Positions 5,498 to 44,368 of a DNA stretch of 64,000 bases are shown here, piece after piece. This stretch comes from Candidatus Eremiobacteria bacterium (lineage in GTDB: Bacteria; Vulcanimicrobiota; Vulcanimicrobiia; Vulcanimicrobiales; Vulcanimicrobiaceae): positions 160,001 through 224,000 of the forward strand of contig CAVTRC010000001.1 in NCBI GenBank assembly GCA_963737065.1. The letters are read 5' to 3'. Within the stretch, counting starts at the first letter, position 1; every line of letters starts with the position of its first letter. The notes beneath the pieces are model-generated. The model did not search any database. It had not been told where the DNA came from and saw only the letters and a list, made by a program, of their open reading frames with translations. Position numbers and translations under genes: made by a program.

Positions 5498-6625
5498 CTA
5501 TACGGGTTGCGCTTCACCGGCCAAGAGTCGCGCTTGTTCGTCTTTCAACAAATCTCCGACGATCGAATCGATCGCGCCATCCATGATGCCCCGGATGTTG
5601 CCGTAGTTTTCGTTGATGCGGTGATCGGTGACGCGGTCTTGCGGGAAATTATACGTACGAATCTTCTCCGAACGATCGCCCGTGCCCACTTGGCTTCGGC
5701 GCAGCGATCCCATCGCTTCATCTTTTTCGCGTTGTTGCCGCTCGTAGAGCATCGCACGCAGCATCTGCATTGCCTTCTCGCGGTTCTGCGTTTGCGAACG
5801 CTCTTGTTGCGAGGCGACGATGATGCCCGATGGAACGTGCGTAATACGAATCGCTGATTCCGTCTTGTTGACGTACTGGCCGCCGGCGCCGGACGCTTTA
5901 TACGTATCGATCTGCAAATCCGAGGCCTTGATGTCGATGTCGACGTCTTCGTCGACTTCCGGCAACACCGCGACCGTCGCAGTCGATGTGTGGACTCGCC
6001 CTTGCGCCTCGGTTGCGGGAACGCGCTGCACGCGATGAACGCCCGATTCGTGCTTGAAATAGCGGTACGGCGATTCACCGCGCACGCCGAAGACGATCTC
6101 CTTGTAGCCGCCGGCGTCGCTCTCGTTTTCGGAGACGAGTTCGACTCGCATGCCGTGCGATTCGGCATATCGCATGTACATGCGCGCGAGATCGCCAGCA
6201 AAGATTGCAGCCTCGTCGCCGCCCGCACCCGCGCGAATTTCGACGAAGACGTCTTTGTTGTCGTTGGGATCCTTGGGAATCATCAACACGTGCAGTTGGT
6301 CTTCGAGCTCGTCACGGCGCGCGCGCAGTTCCTCTGCCTCTTCTTCGGCGAGTTCGCGCAGCTCGAGGTCGTCGCTCGTCTCGCGCAGCAGCGCTTCGTT
6401 CGCGCGCAAGCCGTCGAGCGTTGTACGATAGCGGCGATACGCGTTAACCGTCTCTTCCAACTGCGCGCGCTCCTTCACGAGCGCGGTGTACCGTGCCTGA
6501 TCGAAAACTTGTCCTGAGCCCGTCGAAGGGCCGCCGGCGGGGTTAGCCAAACTTGCTTCGATTTCATCGAAGCGTCGAACGGTGGAATCGAGTCGTGCGA
6601 GCACACTTCGTGTTAATTCAGCCAT
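5498..6625 (-). CDS. prfA: Peptide chain release factor 1, with an in-frame repeat insertion near the N-terminus
   Basis: GGQ motif, PAT (PxT) stop-recognition motif, and ESGVHRVQRVP; lies next to prmC. Confidence 0.98.
   Translation of the reverse strand: MAELTRSVLARLDSTVRRFDEIEASLANPAGGPSTGSGQVFDQARYTALVKERAQLEETVNAYRRYRTTLDGLRANEALLRETSDDLELRELAEEEAEELRARRDELEDQLHVLMIPKDPNDNKDVFVEIRAGAGGDEAAIFAGDLARMYMRYAESHGMRVELVSENESDAGGYKEIVFGVRGESPYRYFKHESGVHRVQRVPATEAQGRVHTSTATVAVLPEVDEDVDIDIKASDLQIDTYKASGAGGQYVNKTESAIRITHVPSGIIVASQQERSQTQNREKAMQMLRAMLYERQQREKDEAMGSLRRSQVGTGDRSEKIRTYNFPQDRVTDHRINENYGNIRGIMDGAIDSIVGDLLKDEQARLLAGEAQPV
6508..6530. repeat. 23-bp dispersed REP-like element, copy 1 (inside prfA)
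   Basis: CTTGTCCTGAGCCCGTCGAAGGG; similar copies at 23439, 40825 and 44338. Confidence 0.85.
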
Positions 6626-6648
6626 ATGCGTTTCACCGGGTTAAGAGC

Positions 6649-6681
6649 AAAGAAAAGACGAGCCGCAAGCACGGCTCGTCT
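6649..6681 (-). terminator. Intrinsic terminator after rpmE
   Basis: Minus strand reads AGACGAGCCGT-GCTT-GCGGCTCGTCT followed by TTTCTTT. Confidence 0.75.
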
Positions 6682-6700
6682 CAAAGATATCTCCGGGCAG

Positions 6701-6973
6701 CTACGCTTCCGTTGCGGCCTTCTTCGCCTCTTTGGCGGCCTTGCGCGACGCAGCTTCCTGTTGCTTCTTCTCGGCCGCCGCGGCACGTTGGTTGAACTTG
6801 TCAACGCGTCCCGCGGTGTCGACGAGCTTCTGCTGGCCCGTGAAGAGCGGATGGCACGCGGAGCAAATTTCGACCGCGATCTCTTTCATCGTCGAGCCGG
6901 TCGTGAACGTATTGCCGCAGGCACAGTGAACGCGCGCCTCGGGGTACCAGTTTGGGTGAGTCTTCTCTTTCAC
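6701..6973 (-). CDS. rpmE: 50S ribosomal protein L31 (Zn-binding type)
   Basis: Motifs [21 protein letters not shown] and GRVDKF. Confidence 0.97.
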
Positions 6974-6982
6974 AGCCCCATG

Positions 6983-6991
6983 ATTATAGCA
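6983..6991 (-). promoter_or_regulatory. Extended -10 promoter for rpmE
   Basis: TGcTATAAT lies 9 nt upstream of the GTG start, and there is no Shine-Dalgarno sequence. Confidence 0.6.
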
Positions 6992-7073
6992 GGGGTGTCA
7001 AAGCGACTTCGGTAGACGAGACGGCGCGACTCCGGCAAGCGTTATTAAGGTAAGCCAACCTCGGGAGGGATGA

Positions 7074-7577
7074 ATGAAGAGACTGTTCCTCGCCGGACTC
7101 GTCATCGGAGCGGGAGTGAGCGCTGCGATCGTCGCTTTCGGGGCGGCGCAGCCGGACGGCGCGATCATTCGCAACTCGGGATCGACGAACACGGCGGCGT
7201 ACAACATCAAGATCTGGTCCGACGGACGCGGCGAGATCGTCATGGGCCGCATGGGGGGCGCCGGTAAAAGCTTCACGGTCGACTCGTCGCTCGCGAAGAG
7301 CTTCTTCGACAACCTGAAAGCCGCGCGCGACGATCCCGGCACGCCGGGCCGGTGCATGAAGAGCGCGTCGTTCGGTACAGCTACGACCGTGCAGTGGCAC
7401 GGCTGGAACTCGTTCGACCTGCAATGCCCACCGTGGTCACAGCCGGTTCGAGCGCTGGCTTCCGACGTACGAGCAATTCAGGCCGCTGCGAATATCGACA
7501 CAGGTCTCCATCGCATTCCATTGCCGCGCGAGCCTCGGATGATTCCGTCAACCGCTCCCGAAATTTCGCCAACGTGA
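7074..7577 (+). CDS. Secreted hypothetical protein
   Basis: GGAGGG RBS, signal peptide MKRLFLAGLVIG, and two Cys residues. Confidence 0.75.
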   Translation: MKRLFLAGLVIGAGVSAAIVAFGAAQPDGAIIRNSGSTNTAAYNIKIWSDGRGEIVMGRMGGAGKSFTVDSSLAKSFFDNLKAARDDPGTPGRCMKSASFGTATTVQWHGWNSFDLQCPPWSQPVRALASDVRAIQAAANIDTGLHRIPLPREPRMIPSTAPEISPT

Positions 7578-8224
7578 AATATTCGGTTCTCGTTCTCACC
7601 GCGGCGCTTGCGCTTCTCGCCGTTGCGCCGCCGCCTCCGCCGCCACCGCCCGTTCCCGGATCGACAAACACGACGAATACGGTCACGCCGGGAACAGCCG
7701 CCTCAACGCCGCCGCCAAGCGCGCAATCGCCCGCGACTGCGCCGACGGACGATCCGAACGGTTCACTCAATAATCTTTTCGGACCGCCGAAACCCGCTAC
7801 GAGCGCGTCACCCGGTCCGAACGAAAGCGCAACACCATCGCCGCCACCCGACGATCGCAAAGGGCTCGACGGCGTGTGGGAATTGCAAATTCAGCGCGGC
7901 GCGAACACCGAATACGAACATTTCAATTTGAAGCAAACGGGATCGGCGATCACCGGCACGTATCTCACCCAAGACAAGAAAAAGTTTCCGCTCGCGGGTT
8001 CGATGGATGGGCGCAACGTTCGCCTCGTTGTTTCGCTTGCGAACGGCTCTACGATCCTGCTGGAAGGCCGCGTCGACGGGACGACGGATATGCTCGGCAT
8101 GTTGACGGATTCACAAGAGCGCGTACCGTTCACCGCGGCATATCGGCCGAAAGAAAAGTGGAGTGACAACGTCAACGCTCAACCGGGCGGAATTGGGTCG
8201 CCAAACGGTTATCCTCCGCAGTAA
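7574..8224 (+). CDS. Secreted Pro/Thr-rich hypothetical protein
   Basis: GTG overlaps the upstream TGA. Signal peptide MKYSVLVLTAALALLA, a poly-Pro linker, then a beta-rich domain (GVWELQIQ..ITGTY). Confidence 0.75.
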   Translation: MKYSVLVLTAALALLAVAPPPPPPPPVPGSTNTTNTVTPGTAASTPPPSAQSPATAPTDDPNGSLNNLFGPPKPATSASPGPNESATPSPPPDDRKGLDGVWELQIQRGANTEYEHFNLKQTGSAITGTYLTQDKKKFPLAGSMDGRNVRLVVSLANGSTILLEGRVDGTTDMLGMLTDSQERVPFTAAYRPKEKWSDNVNAQPGGIGSPNGYPPQ

Positions 8225-8228
8225 CGTT

Positions 8229-8732
8229 CTACTTTGCTGCGAGTCGTCGCTCGACGTACGGAACGAGGCCACCCGAGTCAATTAATTCACGCATAAACGG
8301 CGGGAACTCGGCGGACTTGTACTCGGTTCCTTTCGTCGTGTTGCGAATGACGCCGCTCGCCGGTTCGACTTCGACGGCGTCGCCGTCTTCTATGCCATCG
8401 ACTGCCTCCGCCGATTCGAAGATCGGCAAGCCGATGTTCAGCGCGTTGCGGTAAAAGATCCGCGCGAAACTTTTCGCGATCACCGCCGACGTGCCGGAGC
8501 CCTTGATCGCGATCGGCGCGACTTCGCGGCTCGAGCCGCAGCCGAAATTCGTGCCGGCGACGATGATGTCGCCCGATTTCATTTTCGCCGTGTACTGCGG
8601 ATCGAGTCCCTCGAGTGCATGTTTGCCGAGTTCGACCGGATCGATGATGTTGCAGTACTTGCCGGGGATAATGACGTCGGTGTCGACGTTCTTTCCGTAC
8701 TTGTGTGCGGTTCCGTTCAGTTTGCTTTCCAT
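8229..8732 (-). CDS. leuD: 3-isopropylmalate dehydratase/homoaconitase family small subunit
   Basis: Motifs NVDTDVIIP, NFGCGSSRE and SFARIFYRN. Confidence 0.88.
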   Translation of the reverse strand: MESKLNGTAHKYGKNVDTDVIIPGKYCNIIDPVELGKHALEGLDPQYTAKMKSGDIIVAGTNFGCGSSREVAPIAIKGSGTSAVIAKSFARIFYRNALNIGLPIFESAEAVDGIEDGDAVEVEPASGVIRNTTKGTEYKSAEFPPFMRELIDSGGLVPYVERRLAAK

Positions 8733-10016
8733 CTATACTCCCGCCAGTTCTAAGACGCGGGGATCGGTGATTTTTCCGGTTAGTGCGGATACCGCGCACG
8801 TAGCGGGCGAGGCGAGATACACTTCGGACTTCGGCGAACCCATGCGGCCGACATAGTTACGATTCGTCGTCGAGATCGCACGTTCTCCATCGCCGAGCGT
8901 GCCCATATGTCCGCCGAAACAGGCGCCGCATCCGGGCGTATTCACGGCGCAACCCGCTCCCGCGAGCGTCGTAAGCACGCCTTCGGACGCCGCCTGCATC
9001 CAGACTTCTTGCGATCCGGGATTGACGATCACGCGAACGTTCGACGCGATCTTCTTTCCGTCGAGAATCTTCGCCACGATCCGCAGATCATCGATGTAGC
9101 CGTTCGTGCACGACCCGATGAAGACTTGATCCACTTCGATCTTGTCGCGCGCGACCTCGGAGATCGGATGCACGTTGTCCGGCGTGTGCGGGCAGGCGAC
9201 TTGCGGTTCGAGCTGGTCGACGTCGATTTCAATCGTACGCTCGTAGTTCGCGTCCGCGTCTGCGCGCTCGACGATGAACGGACGATCCGTACGCTCCTTC
9301 ACGAATGCAACGGCTTTTTCGTCGGCGTGGAAGATGCCGTTCTTCGCGCCGGCTTCGATTGCCATGTTCGCCATCGTGAAGCGGCCGGTAACCGAAAGAT
9401 TGTCGACCGTCGTGCCGTGATATTCGATCGCGCGATAGGTCGCGCCGTCGATCCCCAGTTCGCCGACCGTTCGCAACATGAGATCTTTCGCGTACACCAT
9501 GCGGCCGAGCTCGCCGTTGTAGACGATCTTGATCGTCCCCGGGACTTTCAACCACACTTCGCCGAGGACGAACGCTGCCGCGATATCCGTCGATCCCATG
9601 CCGGTCGCAAACGCGCCGAGCGCGCCGTACGTACAGGTGTGCGAATCGCCGCCGACGATAACCTCACCGGGTGCGACGAGTCCTTGTTGCGGCAAAACGA
9701 CGTGCTCGATCCCGCCGCGCCCGACATCGAAGAAATGCGTGATCTTCTGCTCGGCGGCGAAGTCTTTCATCAGCTTTGCGAGCTTTGCGGATTGCGCGTC
9801 TTTCGCCGGAACGAAATGATCCTCGACGAGCGCAATCTTGTCGCGATCGAAGACGGTCGAAGCGCCTTTCATGTTCCGCATAACGCCGATTGCAACGGCG
9901 GCGGAAAGTTCGTTTGCGAGCACCAAGTCGACGTTCGCGTTGATAATTTGGCCGGGCTCAATGCGATCGAGACCGGCGTGGCGGGCGAGTATTTTTTCGG
10001 TGAGTGTCATCCCCAT
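8733..10016 (-). CDS. leuC: 3-isopropylmalate dehydratase/homoaconitase family large subunit (short LeuC2/HacA type)
   Basis: Motifs DSHTCTYGA, IGSCTNG, PGCGACFG and STTNRNYVGRMG. Confidence 0.88.
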   Translation of the reverse strand: MGMTLTEKILARHAGLDRIEPGQIINANVDLVLANELSAAVAIGVMRNMKGASTVFDRDKIALVEDHFVPAKDAQSAKLAKLMKDFAAEQKITHFFDVGRGGIEHVVLPQQGLVAPGEVIVGGDSHTCTYGALGAFATGMGSTDIAAAFVLGEVWLKVPGTIKIVYNGELGRMVYAKDLMLRTVGELGIDGATYRAIEYHGTTVDNLSVTGRFTMANMAIEAGAKNGIFHADEKAVAFVKERTDRPFIVERADADANYERTIEIDVDQLEPQVACPHTPDNVHPISEVARDKIEVDQVFIGSCTNGYIDDLRIVAKILDGKKIASNVRVIVNPGSQEVWMQAASEGVLTTLAGAGCAVNTPGCGACFGGHMGTLGDGERAISTTNRNYVGRMGSPKSEVYLASPATCAVSALTGKITDPRVLELAGV

Positions 10017-10057
10017 AGGCAAGCGGTTCTTGGCGCATCGTGCAGAATCCCGGGCTC

Positions 10058-10480
10058 ATGATTCTCAGCTCGGCCGCCGAGCGCAAGGCACTTCTGGAGC
10101 GCAGTTCAACAGTTGCCGTAGTCGGTGCGTCCGCAAAACCGGACCGCCCGAGCCACGGCGTGTTTGCATACCTTCGCGCGCATGGCTACGATGTGACGCC
10201 TATCGCGCCGAAACTTGACGAGCTTCACGGGGTCAAGGCATACCCGAATCTCACCGCGTACGCCGCGGAGCGCGGTGCGCCGGACGTGGTTGACGTCTTT
10301 CGTAAACCCTCGGAGGTACTTCCGATCGTCGACGAAGCGGTCGCGGTCGGCGCCAAAGCGATTTGGTTTCAGCTCGGCGTGATCAACGAGGAAGCAATCA
10401 ACCGCGCAGATAGGGCCGGTTTAGCGGTCGTTGTCGACAAGTGTATGAAGGTGGAGCACCGTGATCGCGTATCCGGATGA
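10058..10480 (+). CDS. CoA-binding protein (YccU-like)
   Basis: Motifs VAVVGAS.KPDRPS, DVVDVFR, WFQLGV and DKCMKVEH. Confidence 0.9.
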   Translation: MILSSAAERKALLERSSTVAVVGASAKPDRPSHGVFAYLRAHGYDVTPIAPKLDELHGVKAYPNLTAYAAERGAPDVVDVFRKPSEVLPIVDEAVAVGAKAIWFQLGVINEEAINRADRAGLAVVVDKCMKVEHRDRVSG

Positions 10481-11612
10481 ATCGCGGCGGCTCGATGAAA
10501 CGTTGTTACGGTACATCGAGCGCTGGCGCAGCACGGGAGAAGCGATGACGGACGGCGAGTTCAACGATCTCGCCCTCACGATCTTTGCGTACCAGCTTCA
10601 GTACAATACGCCCTACGCGCAGTATTGCGCTTCGTTGGATGTTACGCGCGAAAACTTCCCGTCGCAATGGGAAGAAATTCCGTCGCTGCCGAGCGCCGCG
10701 TTCAAAGAAACGCGACTCGCGACATTCGATCCGCTCACCGCGGCAGCCGTCTTCGAAACAAGCGGTACGACGCGCGGCGAAGGCGGCCGGCATTATATGG
10801 AGACGACCGCAATCTACGACGCATCGTTGTTAGCAACGTTCAGCGCGTTCATGCTGTCGGATCATGCGTCGCTGCGATACCTCAACCTCGTGCCGAACCC
10901 CGCCGAGAATCCGCACTCGTCGCTCGGTTACATGATGGCGAAGGTGTCGCAGCAATTCGGTGACGGACGAACGGGCTGGTTCATCAGCAACGGCGTGCTG
11001 GACGTCGAATCACTCATCGCGGAACTGCAGACGGCCGCCGAGCGCGATCGTCCTGTGTGCATCGCAACGACGTCCTTCGCGCTCGTACATCTGCTCGACG
11101 CGCTGGAACAACGGGCGCGCTACTTCGCGCTGCCCGCCGGCTCGCGTATCATGGAAACCGGCGGCTTCAAGGGACGCTCGCGCTACGTCGATCGTTTCGA
11201 ACTGTACCGAACGACCGCGGAACGGTTGGGCACGAGGCTTGAAACGATCGTTTCGGAATACGGTATGACCGAACTCAGTTCGCAATACTACGACGACGTC
11301 TTGGTGCGGCGCGCGGGTGCGCATGGGACGGAACCCCGATATAAGACGCCTCCGCCCTGGATGCGCGCCCGCGTTGTCGGCGCGGATGGAAAGACCTTAC
11401 CGCATGGGACGGCCGGCGCGCTGGTTCACGTCGATCTCGCGAACCGTTCGTCGTGTATCGCAATCCAAACCGAAGATGTCGGTGTCGAATTCGCGCCGTC
11501 GATCTACGGGCAACGCATCGTCCTGATGGGACGCGACGCCGGCGCCTCGTTGCGCGGCTGTTCGCTCACCGCCGAGGATCTCGCCGTGCCCGATCACCGC
11601 ATCCTGCGATGA
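10461..11612 (+). CDS. LuxE/PaaK-like acyl-protein synthetase
   Basis: Motifs FETSGTT, METGGFKGR, SEYGMTELSSQYY, DLAN, IQTEDVG and LRGCS. Confidence 0.85.
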   Translation: MIAYPDESRRLDETLLRYIERWRSTGEAMTDGEFNDLALTIFAYQLQYNTPYAQYCASLDVTRENFPSQWEEIPSLPSAAFKETRLATFDPLTAAAVFETSGTTRGEGGRHYMETTAIYDASLLATFSAFMLSDHASLRYLNLVPNPAENPHSSLGYMMAKVSQQFGDGRTGWFISNGVLDVESLIAELQTAAERDRPVCIATTSFALVHLLDALEQRARYFALPAGSRIMETGGFKGRSRYVDRFELYRTTAERLGTRLETIVSEYGMTELSSQYYDDVLVRRAGAHGTEPRYKTPPPWMRARVVGADGKTLPHGTAGALVHVDLANRSSCIAIQTEDVGVEFAPSIYGQRIVLMGRDAGASLRGCSLTAEDLAVPDHRILR

Positions 11613-11718
11613 TGGGGCACCAATACACCTCCTGTGCGGTGCCTGATCACCGCATCCTGCGATGATGGGGCACGAATACACCTCCTGTGCGGTGCCCGAT
11701 CACCGCATCCTGCGATGA
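11586..11718. repeat. 2.5 tandem copies of a 53-bp palindromic unit
   Basis: GTGCCCGATCACCGCATCCTGCGATGATGGGGCACCAATACACCTCCTGTGCG at 11586, a copy with 2 mismatches at 11639, and a partial copy at 11692. Confidence 0.95.
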
Positions 11719-12935
11719 CCGCTCTTGCGGCGGTGCCGGCGCGGCGGATTATCGCGGCGGTTTCCGGCGCGGCGGCGCGGTGGGCCGACGCGGATTTTCC
11801 TCCGCGCGTGCGGGTTCTCGATTCGATCGTGAAGCGGACCGGATACTCGGTTCCCGTCGTCGAGTACGCGCTCGATCAGCTCTTCACCGCGGTGAACGCC
11901 GCTGACCTCGAAGCAACGATCGCGAACGAACTGGGATCGGTCGATATTCTGGACCGATTTGTCGAACGCACGTCGCGAAGCAAAGCGCGTGCGCGTCCGG
12001 TGGGATCGGTATGCGTCATTTCCAGCCGTACGACGATCGGCGTCGCGATCGTTCCGGCCGTCTTTGCGCTGTGCGCCAAATGCGACGTGCTCGTGAAGGA
12101 CCGCGAAGACGGCATCGTGCGCGGCTTTTTCACCACGCTGTGCGACGAGCTCGATGAGTTCGTAACCGCGGCTCGCGCCGGCGCGTGGCGCGGCGAGGAC
12201 CATGCGGTCGATCTCGCGCAGTTCGGCGTCGTCGTTGCGTTCGGCAGCGATTCGACGTTGGCGCGCATCGCGAAAAACGCGGCGCCGAGCGCGTTTATCG
12301 GCTACGGATCCAAGGCGACGATCGGGTACGCCGGCCGCGATGCGCTCTCCGATGAGGCGAACGTGAAGGCGATCGCTCAGTGCGCTGCGCGCGATCTCGT
12401 GCTCTACGAAAGCCAAGGTTGCCTGTCGTTGCATGCGCTCTTCGTAGAACACGGCGGTGCGGTAACGCCGCAGCGCTTCTGCACGCTCCTCGCCGAAGCG
12501 GTCGAACGCGCCGCGGTCGAATTTCCGCCGGGACCACGCGATGTCCGCGCCAGCGCGCGCATCGCACATGCACGCAAACTCGCCGCATTTCGCTCGGCGA
12601 CGGGCCGTGGCGCGGTTTTTTCAGACGAACGCGCAAGTTATCTCGCGGTCCTCGATCCTCCGCCGAGCGAGCCGCCGGCGTTTCTGCCGCGCGCGCTGTC
12701 GATACACACGGTGAATTCGCCGGATGATGCCGTCGCATACGTGCGCCGGCATGAACTTTCGCTTGAAGCCATCGCTGTTGCGGGCGTTCGCGATGATATC
12801 GTCGATGCGGCGCTGTCGCTCAGCGTCAATCGCATCACCGCATTCGGTGAACTGCAGCGTCCGCCGGCAAGCGGAAGCCACGGCGGACGCGCGCGCATCG
12901 CCGATTTCGTTCGCTGGGTCAGCTTCGAAACGTGA
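11715..12935 (+). CDS. LuxC-like acyl-CoA/acyl-protein reductase
   Basis: ALDH-like fold motifs VVAFGSD, FIGYGSK and the catalytic-Cys region RDLVLYESQGCLS, with C-terminal HGGR..DFVRW. Directly follows the LuxE-like gene. Confidence 0.8.
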   Translation: MTALAAVPARRIIAAVSGAAARWADADFPPRVRVLDSIVKRTGYSVPVVEYALDQLFTAVNAADLEATIANELGSVDILDRFVERTSRSKARARPVGSVCVISSRTTIGVAIVPAVFALCAKCDVLVKDREDGIVRGFFTTLCDELDEFVTAARAGAWRGEDHAVDLAQFGVVVAFGSDSTLARIAKNAAPSAFIGYGSKATIGYAGRDALSDEANVKAIAQCAARDLVLYESQGCLSLHALFVEHGGAVTPQRFCTLLAEAVERAAVEFPPGPRDVRASARIAHARKLAAFRSATGRGAVFSDERASYLAVLDPPPSEPPAFLPRALSIHTVNSPDDAVAYVRRHELSLEAIAVAGVRDDIVDAALSLSVNRITAFGELQRPPASGSHGGRARIADFVRWVSFET

Positions 12936-14215
12936 ACGACGAATTCGAAGCCGTGCGCGGGCCGATCCCCGGGCCGCGCACTACCGCGTTGCACGCGCAG
13001 CTCGCCGAATACGAATCGCAGAACGTCACGTATCTGAGCGATGAGTTCCCGGTTTTTTGGGAGACGGCATCGGGTTCGAGCGTGACGGACGTCGACGGCA
13101 ACCGCTATATCGATCTCACGTCGGCGTTCGGCGTTGCCAGCGTCGGTCATGCGAATCGGAGCGTGACCGCGGCCATCGCGCGGCAGGCCGCGACGCTCAT
13201 GCACGGCATGGGCGACGTGCATCCCACCGAAGTTCGTTCGCGTTTGCTCGAGCGGCTCGCGGGACTGCTTCCCACCGGACTGACCAAAACGTTTCTTGCG
13301 ACAACCGGATCCGAAGCGATCGAGGCGGCGTTGAAAACCGCGATCATGGCGAGCGGTAAGCATCGTTTCCTCGCGTATCGCGGCGCGTATCACGGGCTGT
13401 CGCTCGGTGCGCTCACCGTATGCGGGATCGACAAGTTCGTCGACCGCTTCCGCGGACTCGTTCCCGGCGTGACGACGCTGCTCCACTATCCCGACGCGCA
13501 ACGCATCACGCTCGATGAAGCAACCGCGCAACTCGAACGGGAAGCCGGAGATTGCAACGACATTGCGGCGCTCGTCGTCGAGCCGCTGCAAGGACGCGGC
13601 GGGTGCATCGTTCCGCCGGGCGGCTATCTTACAGCGCTTCGCCGCTTCTGCGACGAGCGCGGCATCATCATGATCGTCGACGAGATCTACACGGGGTTCG
13701 GCCGCACCGGCTGCTGGTTTGCGTGCGAAGCGGAAGCCGTCGTACCCGATATCGTCTGCATCGGGAAAGCGATGGGCGGAGGATTTCCGATCAGCGCGGC
13801 CGTTGGGCGGCCGGCGATTATGGACCGGTGGCCGCGTTCGTCCGGCGAAGCGCTGCACACGTCGACCTATTTAGGCAATCCGATGGGCTGTTCGGCCGCG
13901 CTCGCGACGATTGAGGAAGTGGAACGCGAGGATCTCCCGAAACGCGCGCGCGAGCTCGGCGACGTCGTCGGCTTGCAGCTCGAGCGGTTTCTGGCGCGCG
14001 AATCGGTCGTCGCGGTCCGCGGGCGCGGCATGATGTGGGGCGTCCAACTTCAGAGCGCCGAGGATGCGGGCCGCGTTGTGAAACGCGCGTTGGCGCGCGG
14101 TGTGATTCTTCTTCAATCGGGGCCGGCGGGCGACGTGCTGTCGATCACACCGCCGCTTGTTATCGATCGGCCCGTACTTTTACGTGCTCTCGACATCATC
14201 AACGAGGAACTGTGA
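12932..14215 (+). CDS. Class III PLP-dependent aminotransferase (GabT/ArgD family)
   Basis: Motifs DVDGNRYIDL, TGSEAIE, YHG, EPLQGRGG, DEIYTGFGRTG and GKAMGGG. Confidence 0.93.
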   Translation: MNDEFEAVRGPIPGPRTTALHAQLAEYESQNVTYLSDEFPVFWETASGSSVTDVDGNRYIDLTSAFGVASVGHANRSVTAAIARQAATLMHGMGDVHPTEVRSRLLERLAGLLPTGLTKTFLATTGSEAIEAALKTAIMASGKHRFLAYRGAYHGLSLGALTVCGIDKFVDRFRGLVPGVTTLLHYPDAQRITLDEATAQLEREAGDCNDIAALVVEPLQGRGGCIVPPGGYLTALRRFCDERGIIMIVDEIYTGFGRTGCWFACEAEAVVPDIVCIGKAMGGGFPISAAVGRPAIMDRWPRSSGEALHTSTYLGNPMGCSAALATIEEVEREDLPKRARELGDVVGLQLERFLARESVVAVRGRGMMWGVQLQSAEDAGRVVKRALARGVILLQSGPAGDVLSITPPLVIDRPVLLRALDIINEEL

Positions 14216-15246: not shown

Positions 15247-15286
15247 AACGGCGGCCGGTTTTCCTCGCCGATGCCGTGTGCCGCGA

Positions 15287-23007: not shown

Positions 23008-23431
23008 CAATCTCTCGTCGATCGCGGGACGCCGCGGCGTCCGTCAATTCGTAAAGTTCGGCATCGTCGGCGCGTCTGGTTTCCTCGTCAACTTCATCGT
23101 CTTCACGCTGCTGCAAAAAGTCGATCCGCAGCACGATGAAGCCTTGCACTATTACGTGCTCTATTCCATCGCATTTCTCTCCGGCGGCGTCTCCAATTAC
23201 TGGTTCAACCGCATCTGGACGTTTCGTTCGACCGGACACGCGGTGCACGAAGGCGCAAAATTTCTCACCGTGTCCATCATCGCAATGGTCGTCGGCTGGG
23301 TCGCATCGGCCGCCGTCGCGCCGTGGTATGGGCACGGGCATCGCACGTGGTTCGTCGGTACGCTCGCCGGTATTTTCGTGAATTTCTTCGTCAACAAATA
23401 CTGGACGTTTAAAAATGGCGCTCCGGCCTAG
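23000..23431 (+). CDS. GtrA family protein
   Basis: Motifs QFVKFGIVGASG, NYWFNRIWTF and NFFVNKYWTF. Confidence 0.92.
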   Translation: MHNNLSSIAGRRGVRQFVKFGIVGASGFLVNFIVFTLLQKVDPQHDEALHYYVLYSIAFLSGGVSNYWFNRIWTFRSTGHAVHEGAKFLTVSIIAMVVGWVASAAVAPWYGHGHRTWFVGTLAGIFVNFFVNKYWTFKNGAPA

Positions 23432-23438
23432 CTCGGAG

Positions 23439-23461
23439 CCTGTCCTAAGCTTGTCGAACGA
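23439..23461. repeat. 23-bp dispersed REP-like element, copy 2 (intergenic, degenerate)
   Basis: CCTGTCCTAAGCTTGTCGAACGA. Confidence 0.8.
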
Positions 23462-23590
23462 CGCCGGCCGCCTGCGGTGGGGCCCCCGAGTAATGGGGCG
23501 CTCGACGTGCCGGTAAGCGAAGACTCCCCTAGGGCGCCCCAAATAAACATCACGTCTTCAAGCAACGTTCATCGGGACTTCGTCGCGCTC

Positions 23591-36867: not shown

Positions 36868-37089
36868 GCGTTTCTCGCGGGCTACGCAATCGCTTAACTT
36901 CGTAGACCGGGGTTGCAGCCGGAAGCCTTTCAAACATGCGAAAACCGCGCGCTGAAGTGTCGAGGGCAATCTTCGCGTCGTTGCTTTTCTGCTATAGGAC
37001 CGGTCCGGCTAAATCTTCGTTACCGGTGTGCTAATCACCCGAATCGCTTGCGAGGAAAACAGGGCATGAGGCGGCGTATACGCAGCGCA

Positions 37090-37587
37090 ATGAAGCCGCA
37101 AATCCTCGGAGCGCTCGTATTGGCGACGGCGGCTACTGCGCTGCCCTTCGTCGAAACATCGGCGACCGTTCTTCCGCCGCTCGCAGGATCACGATGTCCG
37201 CTCGCGCAATCCGGCCGAGCGCTCGCGCAATACATCGGGCCACAGCGTAGAGCAAACGAAATCACGCAGATCGCAGTGCTGTCTAAATACGATTCAGTCT
37301 TAGGCTGGATCTACTACACATTCAGCGGCCAAGAATGGTTTGAGCCGAACTTCACCGTTGCGTTAAGCGCAACGTCAAGCCGGATCGTGAACGGAAAGTC
37401 CTCCGGCGGCGTGGCATATCTCCGCGCGCACGATGCCGTCGCGATACATGCTGCAACACTCGACGTCGTACGACTCTACGGCTTACCGGCATCGGACCTT
37501 CCCGCTGGCTATTCCGTCGAGTCGCTAGCGGCAAAGGACGTCACACTAGCGAACTGTTTCAGCCGTCCCTACGAAGGAGCGCAGTAA
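37090..37587 (+). CDS. Secreted hypothetical protein
   Basis: Signal peptide MKPQILGALVLATAATA and a Cys pair. Confidence 0.55.
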   Translation: MKPQILGALVLATAATALPFVETSATVLPPLAGSRCPLAQSGRALAQYIGPQRRANEITQIAVLSKYDSVLGWIYYTFSGQEWFEPNFTVALSATSSRIVNGKSSGGVAYLRAHDAVAIHAATLDVVRLYGLPASDLPAGYSVESLAAKDVTLANCFSRPYEGAQ

Positions 37588-37808
37588 GCTGCGAAGCTCG
37601 CCGTTTCGGCGCGTGCAGCCTTCATACGTAAAGCGTGGGGGCGCGGGCCCGCAACCGCGTGAAGAGCGCGTCGCTACGAGCAATCGCGTGTAATGCTTGC
37701 TTCAGCTCGATGCGGCGCAAGACTTCGCCGGGGTGATAGATGGCGCGAACCTCGTGCGTCCGCTTGAAGCGACGAGCCGTGGAACTGCGATGGCCATAAC
37801 GGTTGAAA

Positions 37809-38342
37809 TCATGGCAGCCTCATCAGCCGATAACGCAGCATCGCCGCGAGCGTCACCGCGTCGTCGATCGTGCCGTCGAGCGCGGCGCGATACGCGTCGT
37901 CGATCGGCATGCGCACTTCTTTGATCTCTTCGACGTGTTCTTGATCCGTCTCTACGCGCAGCAGTCGTGACGCGAGGAACAGAGCAACGGGGGAATCCAT
38001 GATCGACGGAATCTCATACGTTGCGCCGAGCGGTGTCCATTGCGCCGCGTGGAGACCGAGTTCTTCTCGCAACTCCCTTTTCGCGCAATCGAATGCGGAT
38101 TCGCCGTCGCCCGCGCCCCCTTTCACAATCTCCACGTATTGCGCGCGCGCGCCGAAGCGCGGCTGCGACGCGAAAAGAAACGCATCGCCTTCAACGACGA
38201 GCACGCCGCTCGGGCGGCCGCCCACAACCAATACGTGTTCACCGCGTGCGCCCGTTGGATGGACGATCTCGTGCACCTCGACCGCAAGCCACGGATTGCG
38301 GTACACCTCGCGCTTCGCGATGCGCTGATAGGGATCGTTCAT
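37809..38342 (-). CDS. NUDIX hydrolase (ADP-ribose pyrophosphatase-like)
   Basis: Nudix box GG..GE....AKRELREELG, plus VYRNPW and IDDAVT. Confidence 0.92.
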   Translation of the reverse strand: MNDPYQRIAKREVYRNPWLAVEVHEIVHPTGARGEHVLVVGGRPSGVLVVEGDAFLFASQPRFGARAQYVEIVKGGAGDGESAFDCAKRELREELGLHAAQWTPLGATYEIPSIMDSPVALFLASRLLRVETDQEHVEEIKEVRMPIDDAYRAALDGTIDDAVTLAAMLRYRLMRLP

Positions 38343-38395
38343 AGGACGTTCCTTTCCGGGGGGACGGCCGACCCGTCCTTGCGAACGTGCGCGGA

Positions 38396-39922
38396 ATGTC
38401 CTTTGTGTCCCAGCTGTTCGCGACGACGAACGTCGACAAACTTCGCGCGCTCGGTGCGCAGAGAATTCTCAAACGAGCGCTCACGGCAAAGGACCTGGTC
38501 GCGATCGGCCTCGGCACGATGATCGGCGGCGGCATCTTCACGACGATCGGCACGGGCGTCAAAGGCGCCGGCCCGGCGGTCATCGTCTCATATCTGCTCG
38601 CCGGACTCACGTCGTTCTTCGCGGCGCTCTGCTATGCGGAACTCGGATCGATGGTTCCGGTCGCGGGAAGTGCCTACACGTACGCGTATGCAACGCTCGG
38701 CAAACTCTTTGCATGGATCATCGGATTCGCGTTGATTTTCGAATACGGCATTAGTGCCGCGCCGGTCGCACAGCAATTTTCCGCTGCGATTCAAGACGTG
38801 CTAAAGACGATTGGAATCGCACTTCCAAACTGGGCCCAACAGTCGAATCTGATCATGCACGGACCGTGGTGGCAGATCTGGACGTGGGATTTCGCGCACT
38901 CGCAGTACGACCTCGTCGGTGCCTTGTTCGTGATCGGCCTATCGATGATTCTCTCGGTCGGCATCCGTGAATCGGCGACGACGAACAACGTCTTCGTCGT
39001 ACTCAAAATCTCAGCACTCATCATTTTCGTCATTGCGGGCGTGTCGCTATTTCACGGCGCACATTTCGCTCAGTTTGCGCCGCACGGATGGGGCGCGCTT
39101 CAACCGTTCGGCGGCATGGCGGATTACATGTCGTCGGCGCAGCCGTACGGTATCATTGCGATCTCGGCATACGTCTTCTTCAGCTACATCGGGTTTGATA
39201 CGGCAACGACGACCGCGGAAGAATGTAAGAATCCTCAATTCGACGTGCCGATGGGTGTGATGGGCGCTCTTGCGATCGGAACGCTCATCTATTGCGCTAC
39301 CGCGATCATCCTCATCGGTGCCGTACCGTGGAATCAAGTGCCGATCAAAGACCCGCTCGTGTACGCGCTTGCACCATTGCATCAGCCTTGGCTCACATGG
39401 GTGATTACGATCGGCGTGCTCGCGGGAACGACCAGCGTCGCGCTAAGCTCGCTGCTCGGTCAGACGCGTATCTTTTACGTTATGGCGCGCGATAAGATGC
39501 TTCCCGACGCTGTCGCGTACGTCAATCCGCGTTTCAAAACGCCGGTCCGCACCACGATGCTGACCGGCGTTGCGGTCGCGCTTCTCACGCTGATCGTACC
39601 GCTCAATGAGTTGCTGAATCTCGTGAACATTGGAACGCTCATCGCCTTCACCGTCGTCTGCGGAGGCGTCATCTACCTGCGCAAGCGCCGACCGGATCTC
39701 CCGCGCGCGTTCCGCGTGCCGTTCGTGCCGCTCTTCCCGATCCTCGGCATCGTATGCTCGCTTTTCCTCGCGATCTTTGGGCTGTCGAGAACCACCTGGT
39801 CGTGGTTTGCCGGAGCGCTGATCGTCGGCTTGATCTTCTTCTTTAGCTACGGCTTCCGTAAATCGAATCCCGAAAACGTTAAGCCGGTGGAAGAGCCCGA
39901 AGGCCTCGCGGAATACGCGTGA
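38396..39922 (+). CDS. APC family amino acid permease
   Basis: Motifs GLGTMIGGGIF, CYAELGSMVPVAGSAY, FFSYIGFD and AFRVP. Confidence 0.95.
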   Translation: MSFVSQLFATTNVDKLRALGAQRILKRALTAKDLVAIGLGTMIGGGIFTTIGTGVKGAGPAVIVSYLLAGLTSFFAALCYAELGSMVPVAGSAYTYAYATLGKLFAWIIGFALIFEYGISAAPVAQQFSAAIQDVLKTIGIALPNWAQQSNLIMHGPWWQIWTWDFAHSQYDLVGALFVIGLSMILSVGIRESATTNNVFVVLKISALIIFVIAGVSLFHGAHFAQFAPHGWGALQPFGGMADYMSSAQPYGIIAISAYVFFSYIGFDTATTTAEECKNPQFDVPMGVMGALAIGTLIYCATAIILIGAVPWNQVPIKDPLVYALAPLHQPWLTWVITIGVLAGTTSVALSSLLGQTRIFYVMARDKMLPDAVAYVNPRFKTPVRTTMLTGVAVALLTLIVPLNELLNLVNIGTLIAFTVVCGGVIYLRKRRPDLPRAFRVPFVPLFPILGIVCSLFLAIFGLSRTTWSWFAGALIVGLIFFFSYGFRKSNPENVKPVEEPEGLAEYA

Positions 39923-40311
39923 AGCTACCGTTTGATCCGCCGACCGTTCAACGAAAGGACGTTCGGGCGCTGTCGGCCGTATTCGTCAGCGTGCTCTTCG
40001 GTCTCGGCGCATATTGCGCAGCGATGCGCGGTACGTTCTACCCGGACAAACCGTACTGGCACGTCCTCGGAACGTTTCTTCTATCGAACGCTGTGGCATG
40101 GGTGCTCATCATTTTCGTGGTACGGCCGCTTCGTGGAATGCCGCCGCTGATTCGAAAGAGGCCGCAAGACGATTTCGAAACGTGGCTTACGGGTTATGGC
40201 TTTCGTTGGGGGCGCTTACGTGAACGGTACAGCACGAACGAACTGATTTGGCTCTTTGGTGTGCTCGTGGTCCCCTGCGTCGCCGCATTCGTCTCGTCTA
40301 TACGAATGTAG
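39919..40311 (+). CDS. Small membrane protein
   Basis: Three hydrophobic segments; GTGA overlap with the permease gene. Confidence 0.55.
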   Translation: MKLPFDPPTVQRKDVRALSAVFVSVLFGLGAYCAAMRGTFYPDKPYWHVLGTFLLSNAVAWVLIIFVVRPLRGMPPLIRKRPQDDFETWLTGYGFRWGRLRERYSTNELIWLFGVLVVPCVAAFVSSIRM

Positions 40312-40346
40312 ACCGAACGCAAGCGGTCCCGGGGCGCCAAGGAAAG

Positions 40347-40817
40347 TTATTGTGTGTCGGGTGACGCGGGCGTGGCGGCGGTACCGAGGCCGGAGAGGAT
40401 TTCTACGCGCGCACTTCGCGCGTTGTAGCTGGCGCTGACGCCGAAAGCATCGGCGATCGGTTTGAGCCCGATCATAACGCGGCCGCGAACGCGAAACGGC
40501 GCGTGATGCATCGTGAAATGCATGCCGTTGATCGTTGCCTTGTCGCTGCCCAGTTGGACGCGTAGCGATCGCGTGCCGCGCACAACGAAGATCTTGTCTC
40601 CGTCGAGGATCGTTTGCGCGCCGAGCGCATCCGCGACCGACCGTAGCGGCACGTAGACGCGTTGCGCCGAAGTTGTGACGGGCGGCACGTCGCTCTGCAC
40701 CGGTTGACCATCGACGAGCATGTCGACCGGCCGCGAGAAGGTCAGTATTCCACCGCACGCCGTTGCAACGATCGCGGTGACGATCAGCGTTTGCGCGCGC
40801 GGCCAGCGGTACACCAC
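40347..40817 (-). CDS. Copper amine oxidase N-terminal (stalk) domain protein
   Basis: Motifs VDGQPV..VYVPLRSVADALGA and ATING..APF..GRVMI. Confidence 0.85.
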   Translation of the reverse strand: MVYRWPRAQTLIVTAIVATACGGILTFSRPVDMLVDGQPVQSDVPPVTTSAQRVYVPLRSVADALGAQTILDGDKIFVVRGTRSLRVQLGSDKATINGMHFTMHHAPFRVRGRVMIGLKPIADAFGVSASYNARSARVEILSGLGTAATPASPDTQ

Positions 40818-41962
40818 TAATGAGCCTGTCCTGAACCTGTCGAAGGATGTTCCGGGTATTTTTCTGCGATCACTTTCTCGATTTCTAGTCGCAACATGCC
40901 GAGAAGTTGATCTTCGGGAAACGTGCCGACCAGCTCACCCGCGCGGTAGATCGCACCCTTACCCTTGCCGCCCGCTACGCCGACGTCGGCCATCTTCGAT
41001 TCGCCTGGGCCATTGACGACGCAGCCCATGACGGCTACTTTCACAGGCGCCGTATACTCTTTCGCAATCGCTTCGACCGCGCGCCCCAGTTCAAGCACCG
41101 AAATTTCGGCGCGCCCGCACGACGGGCATGCGGTGATTTCGAATCCTTTTTCGCGCAAGCCGAGCGACTTCAAAATCGACCAGCACACCGGCACTTCTTC
41201 GATCGGATCGGCTGCAAGCGACACGCGGACTGTATCGCCGATGCCTTCGAAGAGAAGAATGCCCAGACCAATCGAGGATTTGATCGTGCCGTCGCGGAGC
41301 AGTCCCGCTTCCGTGATGCCGAGATGCAGCGGATATGGCGTGTCGCGCTCGCGAAGGCGTTTGTCCATCAGGCGATACGCTGCAACGGTCGTCATAACGT
41401 CGTGCGCTTTGAGCGAGATTGCGATATCGTGGTGGCCGTACTCCTCGATCAGTTCCACGTGGCGCAACGCAGACTCGACCATAGCCTCCGCCGTGTGGCC
41501 GAGCGTCTTCTCGAGATCGGGCGCAAGCGAACCCATGTTCACGCCGACCCGAATCGGAATACCCTTTGCTTTCGCCGCCGTGACCACTTCGGCGACCTTC
41601 TTCGGATCGCGAATGTTGCCCGGATTGAGCCGCAACTTCGCGACCCCGGCTTCGATTGCGGCGAGCGCCATTTTGTGATCGAAATGAATGTCCGCGACGA
41701 TCGGAACGGGCGAACGATAGACGATCGCCGGAAGTCCGGCGGCGTCGGGTGGGTCTTTCACGGTCACGCGAACGACTTCACACCCTTCCATTGCAAGGCC
41801 GTAAATCTGTTCGAGCGTTTTATCGGCGTCCGCTGTATCCGTCGTCGTCATTGACTGCACGACAACGGGATGATCGCCGCCGATCCACACGCTCTTCGCA
41901 TCGGCTTTGCCGGTTTTGTTCTGAAGAAAAATCGGCTTCGACTTACGGCGCAAACGAATCAC
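40817..41962 (-). CDS. ispG: (E)-4-hydroxy-3-methylbut-2-enyl-diphosphate synthase
   Basis: Motifs VQSMT, ADIHF, RLNPGN, HLGITEAG, ACPSCGR and MGCVVNGPGE. Confidence 0.98.
   Translation of the reverse strand: MIRLRRKSKPIFLQNKTGKADAKSVWIGGDHPVVVQSMTTTDTADADKTLEQIYGLAMEGCEVVRVTVKDPPDAAGLPAIVYRSPVPIVADIHFDHKMALAAIEAGVAKLRLNPGNIRDPKKVAEVVTAAKAKGIPIRVGVNMGSLAPDLEKTLGHTAEAMVESALRHVELIEEYGHHDIAISLKAHDVMTTVAAYRLMDKRLRERDTPYPLHLGITEAGLLRDGTIKSSIGLGILLFEGIGDTVRVSLAADPIEEVPVCWSILKSLGLREKGFEITACPSCGRAEISVLELGRAVEAIAKEYTAPVKVAVMGCVVNGPGESKMADVGVAGGKGKGAIYRAGELVGTFPEDQLLGMLRLEIEKVIAEKYPEHPSTGSGQAH
40825..40847. repeat. 23-bp dispersed REP-like element, copy 3 (ispG C-terminus)
   Basis: CCTGTCCTGAACCTGTCGAAGGA, which encodes PSTGSGQ. 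Confidence 0.85.
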
Positions 41963-42023
41963 GAGTGTTTCCCGCCGTTGCTACAGCGCCGACCGGCTGA
42001 CGCGTTGTTGATGGGGGCAAACA

Positions 42024-43145
42024 CTATAGCACTCCTTTGCCCGACACGATGCGAGCGATGTCGTGGAACGCAACCAGGACCATCAAAGCCATCAACGCCG
42101 CAAAGCCCGCGATGTGAACGAGTGCCTCTTTTTCCGGATCGACCGGTTTTCCGCGCACGAGTTCTGCGATGATGAACACGCCGCGACCGCCGTCAAGCGC
42201 CGGAAACGGCAACAGATTGAAGAGACCGAGCGCGAACGAAATTGTCGCGGCGAGCGCGAAATATGGGCCCCAGCCGAAATCTTGAATGACGCCGGCCGCT
42301 TGCCCCATACCGACCGGTCCGGAAACTTGCCCGGCGTACTTCGTGAAGTGCGTAACGAGCAACCCGAGCTGTCCCACCATTTGATCGGTAACGTTGGCGT
42401 ACTCGATAGCGCTATATCGAATCGATTGCGCAAAGCCGACGCGTTCGAAAGCCGGTTCCGGGACGAATCCGATACAGCCTTGTTTTGCGTTTCCCGGACA
42501 CGCCGCGGGTACGACGTCAATCGTCGTCTGGGCGCCGTTGCGCGTGTACGTCACGCTCATCGGCTTGCCGAGCGATCCGTGAATCGTATCGATCAATCTC
42601 GACGCATTTGTAACCTTGGCGCCGCTGATGTCAACGGAGAGGATCCGGTCTCCGGGCTGTAATCCCGCCCTCGCGGCAGGCGTATTCGGAACGACCTCCG
42701 TTACGACGGCGCGGTCGATGCGATCGCTCGGCACGCCGAACGCAAGCGCGCCGACGAGCAGGATGATATAGGCGAGAATGAAGTTCGCGACGGGACCCGC
42801 CACAATAATTGCGAGACGCCGCCACGCCGACTTCGATTGAAAGTTCCCGCCGGGGTCGACCGGGCGCTCGCGGTAATCGCGCTGCTGCTCGGCCTCACTT
42901 GTCTTATTGTCCTCGCCCTCCATCGAACAGAACCCGCCGATGGGCAGCGCGCGTAGCGAGTAGAGCGTCCCGCTGCGCGGACTTCGCCAACCGGCAAGTT
43001 TGGGACCCATGCCGACGGCAAACTCGTTCACCTTGACGCGGTTGCGGCGGGCGACGATGAAGTGCCCGAGCTCGTGGAGGACCACGAGGATCGAGAGCAT
43101 CACGAGGAACGTGATGATTTTGTCGATCGACGCAACACTGACCAT
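42024..43145 (-). CDS. rseP: RIP metalloprotease RseP
   Basis: HELGH, PIGGF, AGPVAN, a PDZ domain and NLLPFPALDGG; follows dxr. Confidence 0.94.
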   Translation of the reverse strand: MVSVASIDKIITFLVMLSILVVLHELGHFIVARRNRVKVNEFAVGMGPKLAGWRSPRSGTLYSLRALPIGGFCSMEGEDNKTSEAEQQRDYRERPVDPGGNFQSKSAWRRLAIIVAGPVANFILAYIILLVGALAFGVPSDRIDRAVVTEVVPNTPAARAGLQPGDRILSVDISGAKVTNASRLIDTIHGSLGKPMSVTYTRNGAQTTIDVVPAACPGNAKQGCIGFVPEPAFERVGFAQSIRYSAIEYANVTDQMVGQLGLLVTHFTKYAGQVSGPVGMGQAAGVIQDFGWGPYFALAATISFALGLFNLLPFPALDGGRGVFIIAELVRGKPVDPEKEALVHIAGFAALMALMVLVAFHDIARIVSGKGVL

Positions 43146-43147
43146 GG

Positions 43148-44368
43148 CTAAGACACTGAACACTTCGTCTTGATTTCCTCGATATATCGGCCGGCTCGGA
43201 CACGCGCGTCCCGGTCTGCTTTCCTAATACCGTCGAGCGTCGCCGGCCGTTGCGCGACAGCGTCTACGGTCGATTCGACGACTTCGGCGATCCGCGTGAA
43301 TCCGATTTGCCCTTCGACGAACGCCGCCACAGCGACTTCGTTCGCGGCGGAGAGGACGGCGGGCGCGACACCGCCACGCTCGAGCGCCTCGTAAGCAAGC
43401 TGGACGCACGGGAACCGTTCGGGATCCGGCCGCTCGAAGTCATAACGTAGCGGCCCGTTCTCAGATTTCGCTCCAAGCATGATAAGGGGATCCGGGGCCC
43501 CCGGGGAGCCCGCGGGCGAAGGCGAGGTGCCTTTTACACGTTTGGGAGCCGCCAGCACTGGCAGCCGATTGGGGAACGCAAGTGCGTATCCAATCGGAAC
43601 CCGCATGTCGGGGGCGCAGAGTTGGCCCTTCACGCTGCCGTCGGTAAAGACGACGAAGCCGTGGGCGATGGATTGCGGATGAACGGCGACCTGCAAACGC
43701 TCCGCCGGCGTCGAGAACAGACGGCTCGCTTCGATGATCTCGAGGCCCTTGTTCATCATCGTCGCGGAATCGATCGTATTCTTCTGCCCCATCCGCCACG
43801 TCGGATGCGCGAGCGCTTGCGACACCGTCGCGCGCTCGAGCTCATGCAACGAAAATCGCCAAAACGGCCCGCCCGACGCCGTCAGAATGATCGATCCGAC
43901 CGACGACGGATCTTCGCCGACCAGGCACTGGAAAATCGCGCTGTGTTCGCTATCCACGGGAACAATACGCGCGCCGCTTTCACGCGCGCTCGCCATCAGC
44001 AACTCACCGGCAGCAACGATCAACTCTTTGTTTGCAACCGCAACGTCAGTGCCGCGACGCACCGCTTCGAACACCGCATCAAACGCAACCGCACCGTCCG
44101 TCGCCGCGAGCAGGATATCCGGCTCACTCTCGACGGCGACGCGCATCAGTCCCTCAGGACCGTCCGCCGCGCTCGTTACGATAACCGGATGAAACCGCTC
44201 GGCCTGGCGGCTCAATAGTTCGATGTTGCGTCCCGCAGCAAGCGCAACAACGGCAAAGCGTTCCGGATACCGTGCGATTACGTCGAGCGCTTGCGTCCCG
44301 ATCGAACCGGTGCTCCCTAAGATCGCAACTCTCTTAGCCTGTCCTGAGCTTGTCGAAGGGCGTTTCAT
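43148..44368 (-). CDS. dxr: 1-deoxy-D-xylulose-5-phosphate reductoisomerase, with two insertions
   Basis: Motifs ILGSTGSIGTQ, ANKE, PVDSEHSAI, TASGGPF, MNKGLE and AANEVAV. Confidence 0.98.
   Translation of the reverse strand: MKRPSTSSGQAKRVAILGSTGSIGTQALDVIARYPERFAVVALAAGRNIELLSRQAERFHPVIVTSAADGPEGLMRVAVESEPDILLAATDGAVAFDAVFEAVRRGTDVAVANKELIVAAGELLMASARESGARIVPVDSEHSAIFQCLVGEDPSSVGSIILTASGGPFWRFSLHELERATVSQALAHPTWRMGQKNTIDSATMMNKGLEIIEASRLFSTPAERLQVAVHPQSIAHGFVVFTDGSVKGQLCAPDMRVPIGYALAFPNRLPVLAAPKRVKGTSPSPAGSPGAPDPLIMLGAKSENGPLRYDFERPDPERFPCVQLAYEALERGGVAPAVLSAANEVAVAAFVEGQIGFTRIAEVVESTVDAVAQRPATLDGIRKADRDARVRAGRYIEEIKTKCSVS
44338..44360. repeat. 23-bp dispersed REP-like element, copy 4 (dxr N-terminus)
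   Basis: CCTGTCCTGAGCTTGTCGAAGGG, which encodes PSTSSGQ. Confidence 0.85.

Follow-up and report, generated by a model that had tools for sequence, protein, structure and literature searches.

How one short palindrome comes to be read in frame within several unrelated conserved proteins is a question raised by a 64-kb stretch of a Candidatus Eremiobacteria genome (G000; 3.08 Mb in two contigs, C1 and C2, 95% complete), here called the window (G000:C1:160001-224000). A first-pass annotation had noted four copies of a 23-bp element in this window, at positions 6508, 23439, 40825 and 44338, and all four are indeed present, with three, two, two and no mismatches, respectively, to the consensus it proposed; none of 100 dinucleotide shuffles of the window contains any match to that consensus. 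Three of the four, as that annotation also recognized, encode PST(G/S)SGQ(A/V) in one and the same frame in RF1, Dxr and IspG, host proteins that each exceed the NCBIfam cut-offs. The repeat is real, although the unit is 24 nt rather than 23 bp in length and begins 2 nt ahead of the consensus, as is evident from 24-nt inserts and from the 24-nt period of tandem copies; the final G/A of the consensus either takes part in the closing base pair or opens the next tandem unit. We find that this unit is polymorphic for presence among close relatives, has a conserved hairpin structure, shares a 17-nt core with repeats that flank a small nuclease gene (here called the parent form), can be nested within those parents, and is biased toward antisense frames when it lies in genes.

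Filled and empty sites among close relatives

The congeners of G000 (G001, G002, G003, G005 and G006) are related to it as ((G000,G003,G005),(G001,G002),G006), and alignment of orthologs reveals many empty sites. The 24-nt insert in RF1 is missing from all 28 relatives that could be assessed (the unpublished genomes G025 and G034 among them), one further locus, which is broken, having been excluded. Dxr is 30 nt longer in G000 than in all five congeners, 24 of the 30 being the unit, and none of 29 Dxr N termini from the family carries the repeat, such that the peptide is not a phylum-wide feature. The IspG copy is older, with a related copy in G002, a decayed one in G001 that has a stop codon inside the unit, perhaps another decayed copy in G005, and none in G003 or G006. 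Ten further sites in G000 each have empty counterparts in congeners, and there are reverse cases, in which congeners bear units in UvrA, in a second LigA loop and in other genes, and G000 is empty. These within-genus filled and empty pairs, like the recurrent-loop cases described below, are independent of unpublished genomes.

The net length change at insertion sites ranges from +15 to +30 nt, with some target codons lost or replaced, and the junctions are sharp at the GAAGG end and ragged at the opposite end, with no fixed target duplication. We considered the KR...KR around the Dxr insert as a target-site duplication, but the codons differ and KR or RKR starts are common in Dxr proteins of the family. 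No fixed target motif or target hairpin was found in 20 empty sites, and the folding energies of these sites are not below those of random coding DNA; a striking likeness to the unit is seen at single empty sites (RF1, RF3 and the ligA gene of G080). At a glycosyltransferase-sized gene (G000 C1:2368017), a decayed unit corresponds to a fresh unit of equal length in G005 (locus L089), which suggests either that old fixed copies are no longer repeat-like or that copies are refreshed by gene conversion.

Two forms of the repeat and a bias in reading frame

The motif recurs throughout G000: its 17-nt core is present in 30 exact and 17 one-mismatch copies, as compared with none of either for the reversed sequence. 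The parent form, with 27 copies, carries a TGTCA(T/C) tag, and 14 of these copies are intergenic, three lie at gene edges, one in the tail of the nuclease gene, and nine within called genes, where they occupy four frames (genes were called for context with our own dicodon model, not a standard annotator). The tag-less form starts AG(C)CTG(T/C) and has 14 copies, 13 of them in genes and 12 in the frame that yields PST; two C2 matches with two mismatches are not counted, since 12 of that kind also turned up in the reversed control. The tag-less form accounts for all four window copies, which have AGCCTG at the position of the parent's tag. The two forms differ in their genic share (13/14 for tag-less copies vs 9/27 for parents; p=3e-4), and 12 of the 13 genic tag-less copies use one of five open frames (p=2e-7). 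Allowing other loop lengths in the search added a few 25-nt copies in G000, four of them genic and likewise antisense. Other hosts in G000 are a thiolase, a FadJ/B-type protein, an acyl-CoA dehydrogenase-like protein, RF3, AlaRS and AtpD, to which LigA, a RecQ-family helicase and the AccD tail can be added. The frame bias, the empty orthologs and the interhelix position of the RF1 insert all support the earlier proposal that the element is tolerated in coding DNA through a P/S/T/G-rich frame at loops and termini.

A strict replication-strand rule was also considered and is fitted by 19 of 20 copies on C1 of G000 (tallied by hand, with two chance-level matches with two substitutions left out), but only by 36 of 53 in ten other genomes (likewise tallied by hand, with the origin placed at dnaA, only dnaA-bearing contigs included, and one tandem array counted once). 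We rejected this rule because 36/53 is about what is expected from leading-strand gene bias together with the antisense rule. Four tandem parent hairpins, spaced by ~74 nt, are found at G000 C1:2221100-2221340, and the first of these provides a gene's stop codon.

A conserved hairpin in many phyla

The exact 24-mer pattern occurs in at least 122 stretches of GTDB genomes, and the 80 titles shown include Acidobacteriota, Chloroflexota, Pseudomonadota, Bacteroidota, Planctomycetota, Thermodesulfobacteriota, Nitrospirales, Myxococcales, Chlamydiota and Eremiobacterota. Among the 122 matches listed, 13 lie in a PST-frame open reading frame of at least 200 codons and most are outside long open frames; many of the units listed are within other hairpin repeats, and some are in tandem with a 24-nt period (loci L187 and L204). 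Among 200 loci, 15 units are nested in an opposite-strand parent and 12 in the loop of a same-strand parent. An 8-nt direct repeat lies within the CCTGT variant of the unit. When plasmids were searched with the unit, the matches were mostly short ones in Proteobacteria, and an Rfam scan of the window returned no family at gathering score.

A small hairpin with tandem G.A pairs had been drawn from the window copies, and compensatory changes support it. The closing pair, counted over non-tandem A/G-ending copies among the 122 matches listed, is C-G in 60, C-A in 2, T-G in 32 and T-A in 24 (Fisher p=9e-8). In the parent form, stem pairs 2-5 are paired in 132-141 of 142 contexts through CCT/AGG, GCT/AGC and GGT/ACC swaps, although these contexts (some from the unpublished genomes G027 and G034) include related and tandem copies, and the events are not independent. 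The covariation at the closing pair and the stem swaps therefore indicate that the tandem-G.A hairpin is conserved, even though the ViennaRNA energies for it are weak.

Recurrent use of the same loops

Among 76 further copies in the family, 20 map inside proteins with homologs in G000; 19 of these are read antisense and 13 use the PST frame, and three antisense frames occur among inserts in other family genomes. A coding hit was absent for 18 of 35 of the 25-nt variants in these other genomes, vs 9/41 otherwise. The same loops are used by different lineages, with the RF3 loop filled in G000, G006 and G120 (a member of another genus), a LigA loop in G001 (24 nt, PST frame) and G080 (25 nt, LRLR frame), and an acyl-CoA dehydrogenase loop in G000 and G031. 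AtpD is filled in G000 and G001 at positions nine bases apart, and thiolase is filled in G000 and G002 with differing junctions. When set against the species tree, several of these same-loop inserts therefore call for independent gains, for transfer, or for loss on more than one occasion. The RF3 locus tree groups G000 with G006 (0.94), which favors transfer between those two for this insert. Three sites are common to the 15 internal sites in the genus and the 25 in other genera, where a rough uniform expectation over ~890,000 codons is ~0.005. By capture-recapture, the usable insertion sites would number on the order of 100, a rough estimate that is too low if transfer or inheritance contributes.

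A GIY-YIG gene between inverted parent copies

The first-pass annotation had named RAYT/TnpA and GIY-YIG genes as candidate neighbors of the repeat, and of these the GIY-YIG gene was found. It encodes 100 amino acids (PF01541), lies at G000 C1:1636823-1637125 between two inverted parent copies, and has a tail that itself reads PSTSSG. This is the sole repeat-flanked GIY-YIG gene found in G000, and it is outside the window (the open reading frames of which are annotated in part). The transposase domain of the REP-associated tyrosine transposases (RAYT; Y1_Tnp, PF01797; REP, repetitive extragenic palindrome) was not found in G000, at its 95% completeness, and the control search gave matches in 6 of 14 genomes. 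Parent-type hairpins lie no more than 500 nt from each of the 22 family homologs of the nuclease with E ~1e-25 or better (the unpublished G027 and G034 contributing to this count), as compared with none of eight weak homologs from other families.

The best solved-structure relatives of the nuclease are UPF0213 proteins. In a 40-row tree, which takes in the unpublished genomes G027, G034 and G059, a long branch (1.29, 100/100) lies between it and four NTS/SRM-flanked proteins, with only these four canonical Ssn rows included and the root uncertain; a second long branch (0.84) parts it from YazA/UPF0213. The nuclease gene resembles an Ssn cassette in its layout, and the protein probably groups apart from canonical Ssn. 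Arrays of truncated half-hairpins with a period of ~19-21 nt lie on either side of the cassette (locus L051, 1240-1440 and 1790-1865; G000 C1 near 1636600-1637200). In Sphingomonas gilva (locus L210), a canonical Ssn-type GIY-YIG gene with SRM matches has G.A-type units adjoining, and the two hairpin types therefore meet in one cultured species. On a plasmid of Sphingomonas parapaucimobilis, also a cultured host, three G.A hairpins lie close to a GIY-YIG gene that belongs to the G.A-hairpin group (locus L419).

How the unit might spread

The reading that we favor, with a probability of roughly 0.6, is that the unit is a selfish, tag-less derivative of the TGTCA-tagged G.A hairpins, spread by nick-and-repair with GIY-YIG help and kept where eight polar residues are harmless. 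A mobilizing role for the nuclease is likely from its association with the parent repeats. The unit would likely have arisen within the loop of the parent, as an inverted copy of its core, and would later have moved independently. Like SsnA, the nuclease probably cleaves single-stranded DNA at the hairpin; the host's repair machinery may capture the released piece, at times aided by short target similarity; cutting and capture of this kind could generate one sharp end, one ragged end and a net gain of 15 to 30 nt. Selection would then remove frameshifting, stop-bearing and hydrophobic readings, and the survivors would be those reading PSTSSGQA, or less often LRQAQDR, in loops and termini.

Several points weigh against this reading. 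Targets are only weakly similar to the unit (longest shared word 5.7 nt on average vs 5.2 nt, p=0.016), and the best similarity statistic (p=0.002) was picked after the cases had been seen. The distribution of the nuclease speaks for the reading, since 17 of the 21 genomes that have five or more cores possess it, vs 5 of 40 others, but these 61 genomes (which include the unpublished G025, G027, G034, G035, G048 and G059) contain kin that are not independent. Four of the 21 repeat-bearing genomes have no nuclease match with this query, two of them being 72-75% complete. The 24-nt unit may also not be a nuclease substrate, because it lacks the TGTCA tag, and for SsnA the bases just upstream of the hairpin are reported to matter most for cutting (PMC11893778). 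For SsnA itself, only cleavage and the restriction of transforming DNA are shown in that 2025 paper, and mobility is offered there as a hypothesis. The inserts were identified in genome assemblies, and the sharing of sites may be due to gene transfer, or to insertions that are old and were lost in places.

The main rival, which we consider unlikely but give real weight, dispenses with a dedicated enzyme: host template switching or recombination would copy the unit from hairpin reservoirs, such as parent loops and a larger carrier repeat, and the nuclease would maintain only the tagged parent. The lack of a tag on the unit, the internal direct repeat of the CCTGT variant, the frequent nesting or tandem arrangement, and the ragged junctions all fit such copying, as does the G080 ligA unit, which replaced a similar native stretch and nearly rebuilt PLKLR as PLRLR. 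However, most coding targets are little like the unit and repeat abundance tracks the nuclease, and the same exact unit in many phyla with one sharp junction suggests a defined cut. It is distinctly improbable that shared inserts are instead old and have been repeatedly lost, or exchanged between relatives by recombination, with new insertion rare and the hot loops inherited. The IspG and AccD tail copies are common to several congeners and decayed, the RF3 locus tree disagrees with the species tree, and the sequence at C1:2368017 resembles a decayed copy of the same length as the fresh one in G005; but copies at shared loops differ in junction, in variant and even in frame (AtpD, LigA and thiolase), and the empty alleles are uniform across the 28 RF1 orthologs.

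There is only a slight chance that the inserts are selected, with the peptide, or the hairpin in mRNA or DNA, serving as a modification tag or as a marker for nuclease restriction of incoming DNA at essential loci. The hosts are mostly housekeeping genes, and SsnA restricts transforming DNA near its own repeats, as reported in the accessible part of PMC11893778. Presence is nevertheless patchy among congeners, the G001 ispG copy with its internal stop exemplifies decay, three antisense frames are used, most copies in other phyla are non-coding, and the bias toward such hosts may come from how long core genes have been resident. A more ambitious form of the favored reading, which is possible but which we hold as doubtful, treats the 24-25-nt unit as a minimal element that moves on its own in many phyla by means of an uncharacterised GIY-YIG clade distinct from canonical Ssn, with insertion so frequent that separate genera repeatedly fill the same ~100 tolerant loops, including those of RF3 and LigA. 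If so, CGTC-type REPs would gain their missing mobilizer, and the inserts would map, in nature, where core proteins tolerate insertions.

Relationship to known repeats

The first-pass annotation described the element as REP- or MITE-like (MITE, miniature inverted-repeat transposable element). It is REP-like as a dispersed repeat; the MITE-like part is unsupported because no cargo is enclosed by a pair of terminal inverted repeats and target duplication is not of a fixed kind. Like REP/REPIN-RAYT systems and MITEs, we observe short, palindromic, non-autonomous repeats and a small flanked enzyme gene, but in contrast to the REP/REPIN-RAYT systems no Y1_Tnp was found in G000 and there is no GTAG tag, and unlike MITEs the 24-nt unit has no terminal inverted repeat pair. 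The Rickettsia palindromic elements (RPEs) that had been cited as a precedent are of the same kind, being palindromic repeats in frame in unrelated conserved proteins according to the available portions of PMC10969869 and PMC3733652, and the inserts described here are likewise read in frame in conserved proteins that are unrelated to one another and have orthologs with empty sites. RPEs are set apart by length and host (~150 bp, in an intracellular genus, as compared with 24 nt in many phyla), and the CGTC-type REPs and Ssn-related motifs, with a GIY-YIG gene in place of RAYT, are probably closer kin.

The CGTC-2 REPs, as far as they are described in the accessible text of PMC3733652 (Di Nocera et al. 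2013), are like the parent form in the TGTC tag and, in part, in the stem and loop. An unpaired TGTC tag is present at one end of all 27 parent copies in G000 and is lacking from the 24-nt unit. As against an AT-starting stem of 8-9 bp and a loop of 4-5 nt in the CGTC superfamily, the parent has eight stem positions and a 5-nt loop, but two of these positions are G.A, and the first A is paired in only 64 of 142 contexts. The parent differs from the CGTC REPs of that text in the tandem G.A mismatches of its stem, and the coding unit differs in being a tag-less single 24-mer rather than a dimer. The same text reports intragenic CGTC REPs in loops and termini and that its 2013 survey found no transposase for CGTC repeats, and the 24-nt unit is not among the five rows matched by term in its intragenic table.

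The Ssn systems with NTS/SRM repeats, in the accessible sections of PMC11893778, are alike in having a ~100-aa single-domain GIY-YIG protein encoded between inverted YGTC-tagged hairpins, with the hairpin dispersed genome-wide. The SRM pattern, however, matches none of 13 plus-strand parent copies on C1, and has 16 matches genome-wide vs 5 in the reversed control; NTS are seldom genic (2%, according to those sections), vs 13/14 for the tag-less units here.

Coding palindromes in general are already known, and intragenic REPs and RPEs and Ssn/SRM cassettes have been published; we found no published description of the tag-less G.A 24-mer, its peptide, its link to a non-canonical GIY-YIG group, or the repeated use of loops, in a search that scarcely covered the subscription literature. 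How CGTC-type REPs and Ssn-related hairpins multiply becomes a testable question in this lineage, since it offers many filled and empty pairs with readable junctions and one candidate enzyme. A 24-base repeat that adds loops to RF1, RF3, AlaRS, AtpD and LigA, at times to the same loop across genera, also bears on how protein loops grow, and shared PSTSSGQA indels should be regarded as poor phylogenetic markers.

The cyanobacterial small dispersed repeats (SDRs) of Elhai et al. 2008 are ~20 bp long, apparently mobile and reportedly nested in themselves, and they may include a relative of the 24-nt unit.

Hosts and neighborhood of the window copies

The coordinates of the window copies and their hosts are collected in Table 1. 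The RF1 insert was placed with an alignment-based structural model (pLDDT 76.4), a single-sequence model being poor (49.9); confidence is low at the insert, which is predicted to lie distant from GGQ and PAT. The dxr ATG overlaps the cdsA stop, as it does in the congeners, and the Dxr peptide would be translated because there is no later start ahead of the GSTG motif.

Table 1. Copies of the 24-nt unit in the window, with host genes and the larger carrier repeat (window positions)
Feature	Coordinates	Strand	Remarks
prfA (RF1), intact	5498..6604	-	GGQ and PAT motifs kept; insert in loop between helices H2-20 and H36-75
24-nt hairpin unit	6506..6529	+	antisense in RF1, PSTGSGQV, aa 26-33 from GTG 6604; clean +24 nt
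Larger second repeat carrying unit	23417..23589		multi-hairpin
Degenerate 24-nt unit, non-coding	23437..23460	+	directly past stop of GtrA-family gene
ispG, intact	40817..41962	-	NCBIfam
24-nt unit	40823..40846	+	PSTGSGQA within last 10 residues of IspG
dxr, intact	43148..44368	-	NCBIfam
24-nt unit, perfect consensus	44336..44359	+	PSTSSGQA, Dxr residues 4-11, ahead of Rossmann strand

The intergenic copy had been called the most degenerate of the four. Its core is indeed damaged, but it has fewer consensus mismatches than the RF1 copy. It is carried within a larger multi-hairpin repeat, and the intergenic gap that holds this repeat is 188 nt in G000 vs 78-81 nt in four congeners. Four other partial copies of the larger repeat are found in G000, two of which bear a 25-nt unit at the same place, and the family as a whole sometimes bears a 24- or 25-nt unit at this fixed place. 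Outside the window, the larger repeat is seen in G000 at C1:2414735-2414869, C1:2360935-2361049, C1:2068713-2068778, C2:211802-211883 and C2:235837-235904. Elsewhere in the window, at 11583-11741, three head-to-tail 53-nt units (the second and third with 94% and 60% identity to the first) lie at the junction of two plus-strand genes.

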